Positions 24,009 through 37,585 of a DNA stretch of 64,000 nt are shown here, one piece after another (position 1 is the stretch's first letter; each line of letters opens with the position of its first letter). The notes under the pieces are model-generated. The model saw nothing but the letters and a program-made list of their open reading frames with translations. It ran no database searches and was not told the origin of the DNA. This DNA comes from an uncultured Thermoleophilia bacterium (GTDB lineage: Bacteria > Actinomycetota > Thermoleophilia > Gaiellales > Gaiellaceae): the NCBI GenBank assembly GCA_963851065.1, contig CAWKNW010000017.1, positions 165,198-229,197 of the forward strand. The letters run 5' to 3'. The position numbers and the translations under genes are program-made.

Positions 24009-24599
24009 CTACGAGATGCCGGCCAGGTCGAAGCGCGGCCGGTACGTCGCCTCGAACGCGTCGATCGCCGCCTCCCGCTTGAGCGTCCGCGCGATCTCGT
24101 CGAGCCCGTGGACGAGCGTCTCCTGCGAGTGCGCGTCGAGCGCGAACTCGAGCCGCAGACCGTCGGGGTGCGTGATCACGAGCCGCTCCAGGTCGACCGT
24201 CAGCTCGTTCCGCCCCCCGACCGCCTCGCGCAGCCGCGCGACGTCCTCCGCGGGAAGCGCGATCGGAGCGAGCCCGGTATTGACGGCGTTCGTCCGGAAG
24301 ATGTCGCCGAAGGAGGGCGCGATCACGACGCGGAAGCCGAAGTCCTCGAGCGCCCAGGCCGCGTGCTCGCGCGACGAGCCGCAGCCGAAGTTGCGGCCGG
24401 CGATCAGGATCGCCGCGTCACGGCTCTCGGGCCGGTTGAGCACGAAGTCGGGATCGCGCATCCAGTCGAAGAACAGAAACTCGCCGTAGCCCGTCCGCTC
24501 GATCCGCTTCAGGAACTGCTTCGGGATGATCTGGTCGGTGTCGACATCGGCACGGTCGAGGACGACAGTGCTTCCGCTAACGGCCTTGAGCGCCCTCAT
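24009..24599 (-). CDS. leuD: 3-isopropylmalate dehydratase small subunit
   Basis: MRALKAVSGSTVVLDRADVDTDQIIPKQFLK and GRNFGCGSSREHA are present. The start is taken at the ATG at residue 8 of the track ORF. The preceding MAGAGAG belongs to the repeat element. Confidence 0.9.
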   Translation of the reverse strand: MRALKAVSGSTVVLDRADVDTDQIIPKQFLKRIERTGYGEFLFFDWMRDPDFVLNRPESRDAAILIAGRNFGCGSSREHAAWALEDFGFRVVIAPSFGDIFRTNAVNTGLAPIALPAEDVARLREAVGGRNELTVDLERLVITHPDGLRLEFALDAHSQETLVHGLDEIARTLKREAAIDAFEATYRPRFDLAGIS

Positions 24600-24663
24600 T
24601 CCCGCTCCAGCGCCGGCCAAGCCGGCACTTCCGCTCTTTGTGAGCCTCCGTCCAGCCTACGGC
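24600..24663 (-). repeat. conserved intergenic element, copy 1 (leuC|leuD spacer)
   Basis: This 64-nt spacer matches 35758..35821 at about 54 of 64 positions without gaps. It contains the palindrome GCCGGCCAAGCCGGC flanked by direct CCGCTC repeats. On the mRNA strand it ends in GGAGCGGGA immediately before the leuD ATG. Confidence 0.65.
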
Positions 24664-26061
24664 TCATGCCAGCTCCCGCACGTCGGCGAAGCGTCCCTTG
24701 AGCGCGGCGGCGGCGGCCATCGCCGGCGAGACGAGGTGCGTCCGCCCGCCCGCTCCCTGCCGGCCCTCGAAATTGCGGTTCGAGGTCGAGGCGCAGCGCT
24801 CTCCGGGCTGCAGCACGTCCGGGTTCATGCCGAGGCACATCGAGCAGCCGGCGCGACGCCACTCGAATCCTGCCGCCTGGAAGATCGCGTCGAGGCCCTC
24901 CTCCTCGGCCCGCCGCTTCACCTGCGCCGAGCCGGGCACGACGATCGCGTGCACGCCGTCGGCGACGCGCCGACCCGCCACGACCTGGGCGGCGATGCGC
25001 AGGTCCTCGATGCGCGCGTTGGTGCACGAGCCGATGAACACCTTGTCGATCGCGACCTCGACGAGCGGTGTTCCCGGCGCGAGGTCCATGTAGCGGAGCG
25101 CGCGTTCGACCGCGTCGCGCTGCTCGGGGTCGGAGAACTCGGCCGGGTCGGGGACGACGCCGTCGACCGGGGCGACCATCCCGGGATTCGTTCCCCACGT
25201 CACCTGGGGCTTCAGCCGCGACACGTCGATCGTCGCCGTCTCGTCGTACGCCGCGCCCCCGTCGGTCGGAAGCGCACGCCAGGCGTCGAGCGCGGCCTCC
25301 CACGCCGCTCCGGCGGGCGCGCACGGCCGTCCCTCCAGGTACGCGAAGGTGACGTCGTCCGGCGCGACCAGCCCGGCCCGTGCGCCGGCCTCGATCGACA
25401 TGTTGCAGACCGTCAAGCGGCCCTCCATCGAGAGCGCGCGGATCGCCCCGCCCGTGTACTCGATCACACGTCCTTGCCCGCCCGAGACGCCGATCTGGCC
25501 GATGGCCGCGAGCACCATGTCCTTCGCCGAGAGCCCGAACGGCAGCTCTCCGACGAAGTCGACCTGCATCGTCCGCGGCAGCATCTGCGGCAGCGTCTGG
25601 GTCGCGAGCACGTGCTCCACCTCGGACGTGCCGATGCCGAAGGCGAGCGCACCGAGCGCTCCGTGTGTCGAGGTGTGGCTGTCGCCGCAGACGATCGTCA
25701 TCCCCGGCTGCGTGAGCCCGAGCTCGGGGCCGATCACGTGCACGATTCCCTCGCGGCCGTTCCCGGTCGCAAACAGCAGAACGCCGAAGTCCTCGCAGTT
25801 TCGCCGCAGTGCCTCGAGTTGCGCCCGTGCGAGCGGATCGGTGATCGGGCCGTCGAGCGTCGGGACGTTGTGATCCATCGTCGCGACCGTGAGGTCCGGG
25901 CGCCGTACCCGCCGGCCGGCGACGCGCAGAGATTCGAACGCCTGCGGGCTCGTCACCTCGTGCACGAGATGCAGGTCGATGTACAGCAGCGCCGGACCGT
26001 CCGCCGTCCGGTCGACGACGTGCGCGTCCCAGACCTTGCGAAACAGCGTGCGCGGGCTCAT
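24664..26061 (-). CDS. leuC: 3-isopropylmalate dehydratase large subunit
   Basis: [28 protein letters not shown] and the aconitase-family Cys ligands ([19 protein letters not shown]) are present. It has an ATGA overlap with the pheA stop. Confidence 0.92.
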
Positions 26062-35235: not shown

Positions 35236-35751
35236 TCAGACTTGGACGGACGGACTGGAAGTGCGCACGGACGCGCTCGGGCGACGGAGCCCGACCCGCC
35301 CGGTGCGCACGAGCTCGCGAACACCATACGGGCGGACCAGCTCCTCGAACGCCTCGACCTGGTCGGGGCGGCCGACGAACTCGAAGGTGATCGCGTCACG
35401 GCCGATGTCGGCGACACGCGCCCCCGCAACCTGGCTCAGCGCCACGAGGTCGGCGCGGCGGTCGGGCGCGACGGTGACGGTGATCAGTGCCAGCTCCCGC
35501 TCGACCGCCTCGTCCGGCTTGAGCTCGGTGACGCGAAGCACGTTCACCAGCTTGTGCATCTGCTTCTCGATCTGCTCGAGCGAGTGCTCGCTGCAGTCGA
35601 CGCGAAGAGTGAGGCGAGAGATGTCGGACCGCTCCGTCGGCCCGACCGCGAGGCTCTGGATGTTGTAGCCGCGCCGCGAGAAGAGCTGCGACACACGCGC
35701 CAGCGCCCCCGGCTTGTTCTCGAGGCGAACTGAGATCGTATGTGTACTCAC
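35236..35751 (-). CDS. ilvN: acetolactate synthase small (regulatory) subunit
   Basis: VSTHTISVRLENKPGALARVSQLFSRRGYNIQSL is an ACT domain. The start is taken at the GTG at residue 10 of the track ORF. The preceding MAGAGAGNQ lies in the repeat element. Confidence 0.9.
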   Translation of the reverse strand: MSTHTISVRLENKPGALARVSQLFSRRGYNIQSLAVGPTERSDISRLTLRVDCSEHSLEQIEKQMHKLVNVLRVTELKPDEAVERELALITVTVAPDRRADLVALSQVAGARVADIGRDAITFEFVGRPDQVEAFEELVRPYGVRELVRTGRVGLRRPSASVRTSSPSVQV

Positions 35752-35757
35752 CTGGTT

Positions 35758-35821
35758 CCCCGCTCCGGCGCCGGCCAAGCCGGCACCTCCGCTCCTTGGC
35801 CGGCTCCGTCGAGCCTACGCC
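35758..35821 (-). repeat. conserved intergenic element, copy 2 (ilvB|ilvN spacer)
   Basis: This core lies within the 94-nt spacer 35752..35845 and matches 24600..24663 at about 54 of 64 positions. It has the same GCCGGCCAAGCCGGC palindrome, flanking CCGCTCC repeats and a GGAGCGGGG Shine-Dalgarno-like 3' end. Confidence 0.65.
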
Positions 35822-35845
35822 GGCGAGCGTTTGCGGCGATCGGGC

Positions 35846-37585
35846 TCATACCGGCACCTCCGTGTCCGGCGCCTCGATGATGTCGACGGCGGCGGCGCCG
35901 GCCGGCACCATCGGGAAGCACTTCTCCTCCGGGTCGCAGCGGACGTCGACGACCGCGGTCCGTCCGGCTGCGAACGCGGCGGTGAGCGCCGCGTCCAGAT
36001 CGTCCTCGCTCTCGACGGTGAAGCCGGCACAGCCGTAGGCCTCGGCGAGCTGGGCGTAGTCCGGGACGGCGTGCGTCAGGTGCGTCTGGGCGAAGCGCTC
36101 GTCGTAGAACATCTCCTGCCACTGTCGCACCATCCCGAGCCACCCGTTGTTGAGCACGACGGCGATCACGGGAAGCCGCTCGAGTGCGGCGGTCGCGAGC
36201 TCCTGGCACGTCATCTGGAAGCAACCGTCGCCGTCGACGCACACCACGGTCGCATCGGGACGCGCAGCCTTCGCACCGATCGCCGCGGGCAGCCCGTAGC
36301 CCATCGTCCCGAGGCCGCCCGAGGTGATGAACGATCGCGGCCGGTCGCAGACGAGGTACTGCATCGCCCACATCTGGTGCTGGCCGACGCCCGTCGTCCA
36401 GACCACGTCCTCCGCGCGCGTTGCAGCGAGATCGCGGAGCGCCTCGACCGCGGTCTGCGGCTTCAGCACGCCCTCGGTCTTCGTGTACCGGAACGGGAAC
36501 TGCTCGCGCCAGTCCTCCACCTGGCGAAGCCACGGCTCGTGTCCCGGCGCCCGGCCTTCCCGCACCCGCTGCAGCTCCTGCGACAGCTCGGTGAGCGCGA
36601 TCGACAGCGGCCCCACGACCGGGATGTCCGCATGGCGGATCTTTCCGACCTCGGCCGCGTCGATGTCGAAGTGGATGACCTGCGCCCCCGGCGCGAACGC
36701 GGAGACCTTCCCGGTGACGCGGTCGTCGAAGCGCGTACCGACGGCGATCACGAGGTCGGACTTGTTGAGCGCCCAGTTCGCGTACTTCGATCCGTGCATC
36801 CCCGGCGGGCCGTAGTTGAGCGGATGCGAGTCCGGAAGGCAGCCCTTCCCCATCAGCGTCACGACCGCCGGGAGCCGGGCCGACTCGACGAGCTCGAGCA
36901 GCTCGGCGCACGCGTCGGCGTTGAGGACACCGCCGCCCGCATAGATGATCGGCCGCTCGGCGGCCGCGATCGCCTTGGCGGCCTCGTGCACCTGCTTCGG
37001 ATGCACCTTGCGCGGCGGCTTCCAGCCCGGCAGGTCGACCTCCTCGGGGTAGGCGAAATCGAGCTCGGCCTCCTGCACGTCCTTGGCGACGTCGACGAGC
37101 ACGGGCCCCTGCCGTCCCGTCCGGGCGACATGGAACGCGGCTTTGAGGACGTGCGGCAGCTCCTCGACGTCCTGGACGAGCCAGGAGTGCTTGACGATGG
37201 GCATCGTGATGCCGGTCGCATCCGTCTCCTGGAACGCGTCGGTCCCGATCAGCGACGAGCGCACCTGCCCTGTGACGCAGACGAGCGGCGTCGAGTCCAT
37301 CCAGGCATCGGCGATCGGGGTGACGAGATTCGTGGCGCCCGGGCCCGAGGTCGCGATCGCGACGCCGACCTTGCCCGATGCGCGCGCATAGCCCTCGGCC
37401 ATGTGGCCGGCTCCCTGCTCGTGGCGGGCAAGCACGTGCCGGACCGACGTCCCGCGCGCCATCGCGTCGTACGTGGGGAGGATCGCGCCGCCCGGGATGC
37501 CGAACGCGACGTCGACGCCCTCGTGCTCGAGTGCACGCAGGATCGCGTCCGACCCCAGCATCTTCGTCTGCTTCGTCATCTCCAT
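35846..37585 (-). CDS. ilvB: acetolactate synthase large (catalytic) subunit
   Basis: The 579-aa protein is a ThDP enzyme with GIPGGAILP, GGLGTMGYGLPAAIGA and GDGCFQM motifs. The third codon is an ATG that forms an ATGA overlap with the upstream stop. Confidence 0.95.
   Translation of the reverse strand: MEMTKQTKMLGSDAILRALEHEGVDVAFGIPGGAILPTYDAMARGTSVRHVLARHEQGAGHMAEGYARASGKVGVAIATSGPGATNLVTPIADAWMDSTPLVCVTGQVRSSLIGTDAFQETDATGITMPIVKHSWLVQDVEELPHVLKAAFHVARTGRQGPVLVDVAKDVQEAELDFAYPEEVDLPGWKPPRKVHPKQVHEAAKAIAAAERPIIYAGGGVLNADACAELLELVESARLPAVVTLMGKGCLPDSHPLNYGPPGMHGSKYANWALNKSDLVIAVGTRFDDRVTGKVSAFAPGAQVIHFDIDAAEVGKIRHADIPVVGPLSIALTELSQELQRVREGRAPGHEPWLRQVEDWREQFPFRYTKTEGVLKPQTAVEALRDLAATRAEDVVWTTGVGQHQMWAMQYLVCDRPRSFITSGGLGTMGYGLPAAIGAKAARPDATVVCVDGDGCFQMTCQELATAALERLPVIAVVLNNGWLGMVRQWQEMFYDERFAQTHLTHAVPDYAQLAEAYGCAGFTVESEDDLDAALTAAFAAGRTAVVDVRCDPEEKCFPMVPAGAAAVDIIEAPDTEVPV

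Follow-up and report, generated by a model that had tools for sequence, protein, structure and literature searches.

Two long spacers in a Gaiellaceae biosynthetic operon hold copies of a probable MIRU-type mobile repeat

The window analysed here is a stretch of 64,000 nucleotides (nt) from an uncultured Gaiellaceae bacterium (contig CAWKNW010000017.1), in which two long spacers, leuC-leuD and ilvB-ilvN, interrupt a closely packed amino-acid biosynthesis operon. Both spacers very probably hold copies of a non-autonomous mobile repeat of Gaiellales, akin to the interspersed repetitive units of mycobacteria (MIRUs), which probably keeps the separated genes translationally coupled. The element is mobile and inserts where the stop and start codons of co-transcribed genes overlap by 4 nt (NTGA), or next to such a site, in the sense orientation, so that NTGA then stands on both sides. 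It conserves its reading frame, carries a strand-specific structure and can expand into head-to-tail tandem arrays. Within the window, 24601-24661 and 35759-35819 form an ungapped direct repeat of 61 nt with 87% identity (window repeat search and alignment), in agreement with the gapless spacer repeat claimed by an original prediction made from the letters of the window. The leuC-leuD spacer measures exactly 64 nt (24600-24663), while the ilvB-ilvN spacer measures 94 nt (35752-35845), with the shared element in its 3' two-thirds. As that prediction also held, the remaining operon junctions are overlaps or gaps of at most 16 nt, both by the coordinates of the open reading frames (ORFs) and by the gene calls of the source contig. 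A 19-nt core, GCGCCGGCCAAGCCGGCAC, occurs exactly twice in the window; with up to three mismatches allowed, 0.15 matches are expected, and two or more were found in none of 100 shuffles. A covariance model of 135 copies (133 from other genomes and two from the window) recovers both copies with the scores given in Table 1, the next best window match reaching 15.2 bits. Neither mismatch-tolerant motif searches nor an unfiltered search with this model revealed a further copy in the window.

The mobility of the element is seen in the comparison of filled and empty sites. By LeuD, the nearest named relatives are metagenome-assembled genomes of Gaiellaceae (Thermoleophilia, Actinomycetota). In three relatives, with LeuD identities of 87%, 86% and 76%, the two genes overlap (ATGA or GTGA) and no spacer is present. 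We retrieved the whole operon of four relatives (L126 to L129) through IlvC and scanned it with the covariance model. The leuC/leuD site is such a spacer-free overlap (ATGA or GTGA) in L126, L127, L128 and a further locus, L007, and ilvB/ilvN is an empty overlap in L127, L128 and L129. The filled junctions differ from genome to genome: ilvB-ilvN (one copy) and leuC-leuD in the window; ilvB-ilvN (three tandem copies with a period of 69 nt, 100% identical) and the junction of the chorismate mutase gene with leuB in L126 (IlvC 97% identical); thrB-ilvD in L127 (96%); thrC-chorismate mutase in L129 (89%); and none in L128 (93%). The relatives compared by LeuD carry a 64-nt spacer formed by the same element at other places in the operon, L003 at thrB-ilvD and L007 at the junction of the PALP gene with thrB, where this is the filled junction. 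At the leuC-leuD site, GGC-ATGA-GGG in L127 corresponds to GGC-ATGA-(64 nt)-ATGA-GGG in the window, an insertion of 68 nt. Across six junctions of this one operon, (A/G)TGA stands on both sides of filled sites and singly at empty ones. The flanks resemble a target-site duplication, a 4-6-nt (A/G)TGA(GC) repeat that is indistinguishable from an element itself ending in ATGA.

The unit comprises about 68 nt and consists of NTGA, 0-6 nt, a hairpin P1, a purine-rich linker (AGGAGCGGAGG), a hairpin P2, the block GGAGCGGG, 1-3 nt and NTGA. P1 has a stem of 5-7 bp, variable in sequence but paired, and a near-invariant 14-nt loop, GUAGGCUYGACGGA; P2 is a GC-rich stem of 9 bp with the loop UUN. In an alignment of 135 distinct copies, the stems vary around the near-invariant blocks CGTAGGCTyGACGGAG and, in P2, GGCTTnGCCGG, part of this invariance being imposed by the search pattern; the GGAGCGGG block and a GGAGGUG motif are conserved as well. 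We tested the structure ...((((((..............))))))............(((((((((...)))))))))............. Pairing holds in 94.5% of cells, while shuffles reach 81.9% and controls with slid partners 23-54%, and 245 cells are changed on both sides, compared with 91 in shuffles, a value that none of 500 shuffles reached. In P1, five of the six pairs covary, with 4-6 pair types each. Over the whole family, 96.9% of the P2 cells are paired; its three innermost pairs are fixed by the search pattern and carry no information, and the outer pairs covary. At the P2 columns 44/60, U-G is the commonest pair (74 U-G against 51 C-G), so that the full helix is possible on the sense strand only.

The two window copies show this organization in detail. 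In the leuC-leuD copy, the 5' arm of P1 is UGAGCC (24661-24666) and contains the leuC stop codon, followed by the loop GUAGGCUGGACGGA (24647-24660) and the 3' arm GGCUCA (24641-24646). In the ilvB-ilvN copy, both arms read GCCGGC (35819-35824 and 35799-35804) around the loop GUAGGCUCGACGGA (35805-35818); the stem letters differ from those of the other copy and the pairing is kept. The palindrome GCCGGC-CAA-GCCGGC described in the original prediction is P2, and the direct repeats flanking it (GGAGCGG) and the 3' GGAG Shine-Dalgarno sequence are likewise present. No terminal inverted repeats were found: the only hairpins are the two internal ones, and neither end of the element pairs with the other. 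Rfam 15 gave no match at gathering thresholds over the whole window, and around the leuC-leuD copy two weak, irrelevant matches only at E up to 10. The element does not have the form of an intrinsic terminator: after P2 come GGAGCGGG and a start codon rather than a U run.

The element fits closely between the reading frames of its neighbours. An upstream stop codon lies within 12 nt of GTAGG at 65 loci, in 61 of them as NTGA. Downstream, a start codon follows P2 at 13-14 nt in 39 of 92 loci, the start is NTGA in 62 of 84, and GGAG precedes the start by 5-11 nt. An open frame, typically of 23 codons, begins at an NTG that overlaps with the upstream stop and ends at a TGA that does so with the downstream start; among the 69 copies with NTGA directly 5', 56 carry an ORF ending in a TGA that overlaps NTG. 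In the leuC-leuD copy this mini-ORF has 23 codons and a stop, its ATG overlapping the leuC TGA and its TGA the leuD ATG. That of the ilvB-ilvN copy has 33 codons (MSPIAANARRRRLDGAGQGAEVPAWPAPERGTR) and a stop, with its ATG overlapping the ilvB TGA and its TGA the ilvN GTG. At 34 of the 51 well-defined loci the spacer length is 1 mod 3 (chi-square p = 2.5e-6); among the 44 single copies, 20 have a spacer of exactly 64 nt. When copies are compared, internal 1-nt indels are offset further along, and the total length is kept. The conserved blocks are each read in two phases (13 and 14 copies), in four combinations, and the resulting peptides are unrelated (e.g. MSVGSTELTKERRRRLGRRRSGK). Selection therefore acts on keeping a frame open in the correct phase and on nucleotide sequence and structure, not on a peptide. 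The same logic extends to arrays, which are built either from chained ATGA overlaps (period 68) or from in-frame multiples of three (periods 63, 69 and 72); one ORF of 79 codons extends over the whole triple array of L126. In-frame fusion to the next gene is seen in a few copies, as with leuB in L126.

Two sets of loci deserve description in this context. At the chorismate mutase-leuB junction of L126 (17340-17470), the fusion of the element to the 5' end of leuB creates either an N-terminal extension or a leader ahead of an internal GTG start, and the gene caller splits leuB there. At L053 (5002-5074), L017 (2045-2117) and L096 (2018-2090), the 3' part is altered or truncated, and the frame continues for 155-292 codons beyond the element. 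At each of the three loci a frame classifier scored this long stretch as non-coding, so it may be open merely by chance in GC-rich DNA rather than a fusion to the next gene.

The family is a dispersed one. A pattern derived from blocks common to four copies was run on a collection of species-representative genomes and matched at least 118 stretches. At least 117 of these are true copies and come from at least 90 assemblies, which carry the labels Gaiellaceae, Gaiellales, Thermoleophilia or, at coarser resolution, Actinomycetes or Actinomycetota; the single match in an archaeon is not upheld by the covariance model and was rejected. The collected set comprises at least 145 copies at no fewer than 127 loci in at least 90 assemblies. 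Among the matches listed, 92 downstream proteins have hits to 134 Pfam families, none of which appears more than four times. The small subunit of acetohydroxyacid synthase (AHAS) follows the element only twice among the 92 loci, in the window and at the orthologous site of L126. Head-to-tail arrays of 2-6 copies with a period of 63-72 nt occur at several loci, and at ilvB-ilvN the copy number is 1 in the window and 3.0 in L126. In the multi-copy loci among the matches listed, all copies lie on the same strand, head to tail.

Orientation largely follows the neighbouring genes. At the 127 listed loci, both neighbours are sense in 66 cases, both are antisense in 4, divergent neighbours with the element facing the downstream gene account for 7 and convergent ones for 0; the downstream gene is sense at 95 loci and antisense at 4. 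On one contig of 3.1 Mb, the arrays L016 (plus strand) and L083 (minus strand) lie 40 kb apart in opposite orientation, each following its neighbouring genes. Strand and frame of the neighbours were assigned by a codon-usage classifier trained on the verified genes of the window, which was correct for 80 of 80 windows in a self-check and for 52-53 of 53 on relatives. Stop-to-stop ORFs and a GC-frame gene caller were rejected, as they proved unreliable in DNA of 70% GC and put ilvN on the wrong strand. The consensus unit had no blastn match among plasmids and phages. Its core sequence was printed in no paper that we found, and literature searches on 'MIRU-like' elements and on Gaiellales repeats were empty; as far as these searches reached, the family looks previously undescribed.

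Partial variants were observed at L086, L093, L098, L106 and L036, where the P1 or the P2 module is duplicated alone or the middle is deleted between GGAGCGG motifs. Such variants suggest recombination or slippage at these internal direct repeats. When an autonomous parent, with P1 and P2 modules far apart, was sought in about 1 Mb, only local partial duplications or deletions of modules were found.

The closest known parallel is provided by the MIRUs of Supply et al. 1997. As summarised in PMC12548453, these are mobile, insert at start codons and contain an internal ORF coupled at -4 nt; PMC3184786 describes units of 40-100 bp with tetranucleotide direct repeats and with filled and empty sites. 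The Gaiellales element (68 nt) is likewise a short dispersed unit located between co-transcribed genes in the same orientation, with filled and empty sites marked by a tetranucleotide direct repeat, and with head-to-tail arrays whose copy number differs between relatives. In both, the internal ORF overlaps at its two ends with the stop and start codons of the flanking genes (-4 coupling). Furthermore, the units, of 53 and 77 nt in MIRUs and of 68 nt in the Gaiellales family, all have a length of 2 mod 3, as needed for chaining ATGA overlaps. The sole MIRU compared, MIRU292 of M. avium subsp. paratuberculosis (53 bp, PMC7977185), shares no detectable sequence similarity with the element: local alignment gives at best the 8-mer AGGAGCGG, and a match as good as this came up in 147 of 500 shuffles; the element may still be remotely homologous to MIRUs of other types. 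The Gaiellales family also differs in its host class, Thermoleophilia instead of Mycobacterium, and its two covarying hairpins with a near-invariant 14-nt loop may set it apart as well. Because similarity to MIRU292 does not exceed chance and the host class is different, we treat it as a new family that follows the MIRU principle without counting it among the MIRUs.

We postulate that ribosomes finishing the upstream gene would re-start on the mini-ORF, translate it across both hairpins and terminate over the downstream start codon, so that, to judge from the sequence, the translational coupling of the gene pair would survive the insertion. Copies would then persist at NTGA junctions because insertion there is nearly neutral for a coupled pair. 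The conserved hairpins and loop are most likely a handle for a putative mobilisation machinery, and they may also influence mRNA stability or ribosome loading. Arrays probably arise from slippage or unequal recombination.

Several observations weigh against this reading. No transposase or other mobilising protein was identified in the examined loci, in which no search aimed at RAYT-type genes was made, and we infer translation of the mini-ORF and the coupling from sequence. Folding of single copies, as the original prediction had proposed for the window pair, recovers P1 and P2, with z-scores that are weak (-0.8 to -2.3, in a GC-rich background); in some copies, an alternative pairing of the loop segment GGCUC competes with P1. 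About one third of the loci are not a simple NTGA...NTGA arrangement and comprise 5' leaders, copies after terminal genes and in-frame fusions. The strand and frame of flanking genes derive from the window-trained classifier, not from curated annotation. Four loci (L012, L082, L116 and L120) appear antisense to both neighbours, which may reflect real antisense insertion, a copy within a gene or classifier error. Some loci are orthologous between species, so that the counts are not fully independent events, and the figure of tens of loci in each genome is a rough extrapolation from five additional independent copies within some 0.9 Mb of flanking sequence.

Beyond the preferred reading of a MIRU-type repeat that preserves coupling, it is conceivable, though we would put this forward only tentatively, that the element is more specialised. 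The loop and the two hairpins could be the handle of a dedicated machinery that integrates at NTGA overlaps via single-stranded DNA or RNA, or the unit could have been domesticated as a portable 'translational coupler', tolerated or used by the host to re-wire operons. A mobile element would then be aimed at a translational signal, not at a plain DNA motif, and with hundreds of species to compare, the question of MIRU-type mobility would become tractable.

An origin from repetitive extragenic palindromes (REPs and REPINs) or from IS200/IS605 elements is unlikely. Under this explanation, the hairpins would serve as single-stranded DNA substrates for a Y1 transposase of the RAYT/TnpA type inserting beside ATGA, and the sense bias would have come about secondarily, through strand-specific transposition and subsequent selection. 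GTAG is the signature tetranucleotide of REPs, and the near-invariant segment of the Gaiellales element begins with it. GC-rich hairpins close to both ends, insertion beside a fixed tetranucleotide without terminal inverted repeats, and strand-specific pairing with many G-U (or G-T) pairs would all suit such an origin. However, the invariant GTAG starts the P1 loop and does not stand at the foot of a palindrome, and the two hairpins are unlike each other. Inverted doublets are absent from the listed matches, in which every multi-copy locus is head-to-tail on one strand, and the opposite arrays L016 and L083 each keep to the direction of their own neighbouring genes. No RAYT-type gene was seen in the examined loci, where no systematic search for one was made. 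REP, BIME and REPIN repeats of Gram-negative bacteria are short, GC-rich and hairpin-forming, are extragenic and often lie within operons, and have known or proposed effects on mRNA stability. The Gaiellales family shares this general character and the GTAG motif but differs in its direct arrays, free of inverted doublets and mosaic clusters, in its strict sense orientation, in the position of GTAG within a loop, and in keeping the reading phase with start and stop codons that overlap the neighbouring genes.

Other hairpin repeats offer partial parallels only. Miniature inverted-repeat transposable elements (MITEs) such as Correia/NEMIS and ERIC are also small, non-autonomous insertions with short direct-repeat flanks that are co-transcribed and form RNA hairpins; the Gaiellales element, in contrast, lacks terminal inverted repeats, is strongly biased in orientation and targets a stop/start overlap instead of a TA-type site. 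Rickettsia palindromic elements are selfish hairpin repeats that survive by compatibility with translation, and the few Gaiellales copies fused to the N-terminus of the next gene recall them. These elements are, however, in-frame peptide segments inside coding sequence, whereas the Gaiellales element is normally intergenic and contains a separate, coupled mini-ORF.

Rather improbable is an exapted RNA module, in which the structured RNA would be selected and not merely tolerated, whether because it blocks 3'-to-5' decay of the upstream cistron, provides a processing site or loads ribosomes through its three GGAG motifs. REP elements of E. coli stabilise upstream mRNA, which lends this view some precedent. 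Conservation of the loop and of both stems, the latter through compensatory changes, extends over at least 90 species, the motifs GGAGGUG and GGAGCGGG are retained, and the strict sense orientation places the element in the mRNA. Yet the insertion sites differ between close relatives, the operon of L128 has no copy at all, and the copy number at a single site varies from 1 to 3.

The original prediction had regarded the element as a dedicated cis-regulatory sequence between catalytic and small subunits (leuCD and ilvBN), tuning the stability, processing or translation of the message. It was correct in that the element is real and non-random, with covarying hairpins and a 3' end that supplies the Shine-Dalgarno sequence adjoining the downstream start codon; hairpins and a Shine-Dalgarno sequence would suit such a role, as would the fact that the only two window copies both precede a small-subunit gene. 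The proposed dedication to catalytic/small-subunit junctions did not hold. Close relatives overlap leuC with leuD and ilvB with ilvN without a spacer and are filled at thrB-ilvD, PALP-thrB, thrC-chorismate mutase and chorismate mutase-leuB instead, and the diversity of downstream families (134 across 92 loci, the AHAS small subunit twice only) shows no such preference. The prediction had itself named two outcomes that would count against it, many dispersed copies in a genome-wide search and a lack of conservation at these junctions in relatives. The search returned a dispersed repeat with at least 117 further stretches in at least 90 assemblies, and conservation at the leuCD and ilvBN junctions was not found, so that the dedicated reading is refuted and retains very little probability. 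The position of both window copies ahead of a small subunit is best read as a coincidence of two insertions in an operon with many NTGA junctions. Least credible of all is a duplicated small protein-coding gene of about 23 amino acids (aa): most copies do have an open frame with start and stop, but copies differ in the phase in which they read the conserved nucleotides, giving unrelated peptides, and frame-shifting indels are offset in a way that keeps the length rather than the peptide. At least one defining test speaks against each of the readings as REP/REPIN, MITE, intrinsic terminator or small protein.

MIRU-type repeats have hitherto been a mycobacterial curiosity used in strain typing. 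A second family with the same logic and without detectable MIRU similarity, in abundant and almost uncultured soil actinobacteria, suggests that inserting at a stop/start overlap and keeping the ribosome coupled is a recurrent strategy of small selfish DNA. While the principle is already known, the family is apparently undescribed, belongs to a poorly known lineage and is unusually suited to comparison: its conserved loop and stems provide a handle for finding the mobilising factor, and it offers many pairs of filled and empty sites. The variable-number tandem arrays might be used to tell Gaiellales strains apart in soil metagenomes. For annotation, spacers holding the element mislead gene callers into false N-terminal extensions (MAGAGAG...) and split genes, and they could be mistaken for gene-specific regulatory RNAs. 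The spurious MAGAGAG that the original prediction noticed on both small-subunit ORFs indeed stems from a TTG in the P2 loop, by chance in frame with the downstream gene. This TTG lies at 35778 and 24620 in the window and at 9443 in L126, where the automatic gene caller used it as the ilvN start and called a protein of 180 aa instead of 171.

The coordinates of both copies, their hairpins and the flanking genes are collected in Table 1.

Table 1. Positions in the window of the two element copies, their substructures and the adjoining genes.
Feature	Position	Strand	Evidence
leuD, downstream of copy 1	24009..24599	-	NCBIfam 3-isopropylmalate dehydratase small subunit, E = 7e-71
leuC, upstream of copy 1, 465 aa	24664..26061	-	NCBIfam, E = 2e-231; source-contig gene call (L001)
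leuC-leuD copy (copy 1), full unit with both flanking ATGA	24596..24667	-	Translation; covariance-model match 24597-24669, 87.8 bits; empty sites of relatives
Hairpin P1, leuC-leuD copy	24641..24666	-	Inverted repeat; minimum-energy fold; family covariation at 5/6 pairs
Hairpin P2, leuC-leuD copy; 9-bp GC-rich stem, loop UUG	24609..24629	-	Inverted repeat; minimum-energy fold
GGAG Shine-Dalgarno-like motif, 5 nt 5' of leuD ATG	24605..24608	-	Read from sequence
ilvN, downstream of copy 2, GTG start	35236..35751	-	NCBIfam acetolactate synthase small subunit, E = 3e-56
ilvB, upstream of copy 2	35846..37585	-	NCBIfam acetolactate synthase large subunit, E = 4e-236
ilvB-ilvN copy (copy 2) with 5' extension	35748..35849	-	Translation; empty in L127, L128 and L129; three tandem copies at the orthologous site of L126
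Core element, ilvB-ilvN copy	35755..35827	-	Family covariance model, 88.7 bits, E = 5e-18
Hairpin P1, ilvB-ilvN copy	35799..35824	-	Inverted repeat; family covariation
Hairpin P2, ilvB-ilvN copy; 9 bp, loop UUG	35767..35787	-	Inverted repeat; minimum-energy fold
GGAG Shine-Dalgarno-like motif, 11 nt 5' of ilvN GTG	35763..35766	-	Read from sequence

Spacers of other kinds were observed at the ilvD-thrC junction, where the gap of 16 nt in the window compares with 136 nt in L128 (15782-15940) and 75 nt in L126 (15789-15863). Both are unrelated in sequence to the Gaiellales family. The L128 spacer begins with ATGAGC and is called as an ORF of 52 aa bridging both genes, and that of L126 is AT-richer, with a GAATGACA/TGTCATTC hairpin; they may represent other insertion families at the same kind of site.

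The operon itself forms an unusually long and mixed string of amino-acid biosynthesis genes (24009-46353, minus strand), the junctions of which are mostly overlaps of 4-14 nt. It comprises gltB, gltD, an HxlR-type regulator, a leuA-like gene (HMGL), an Iso_dh paralogue, ilvB, ilvN, ilvC, hom, a ThrC-like PALP protein, thrB, ilvD, thrC, chorismate mutase, leuB, pheA, leuC and leuD, and thus includes two Iso_dh paralogues and two ThrC/PALP paralogues.

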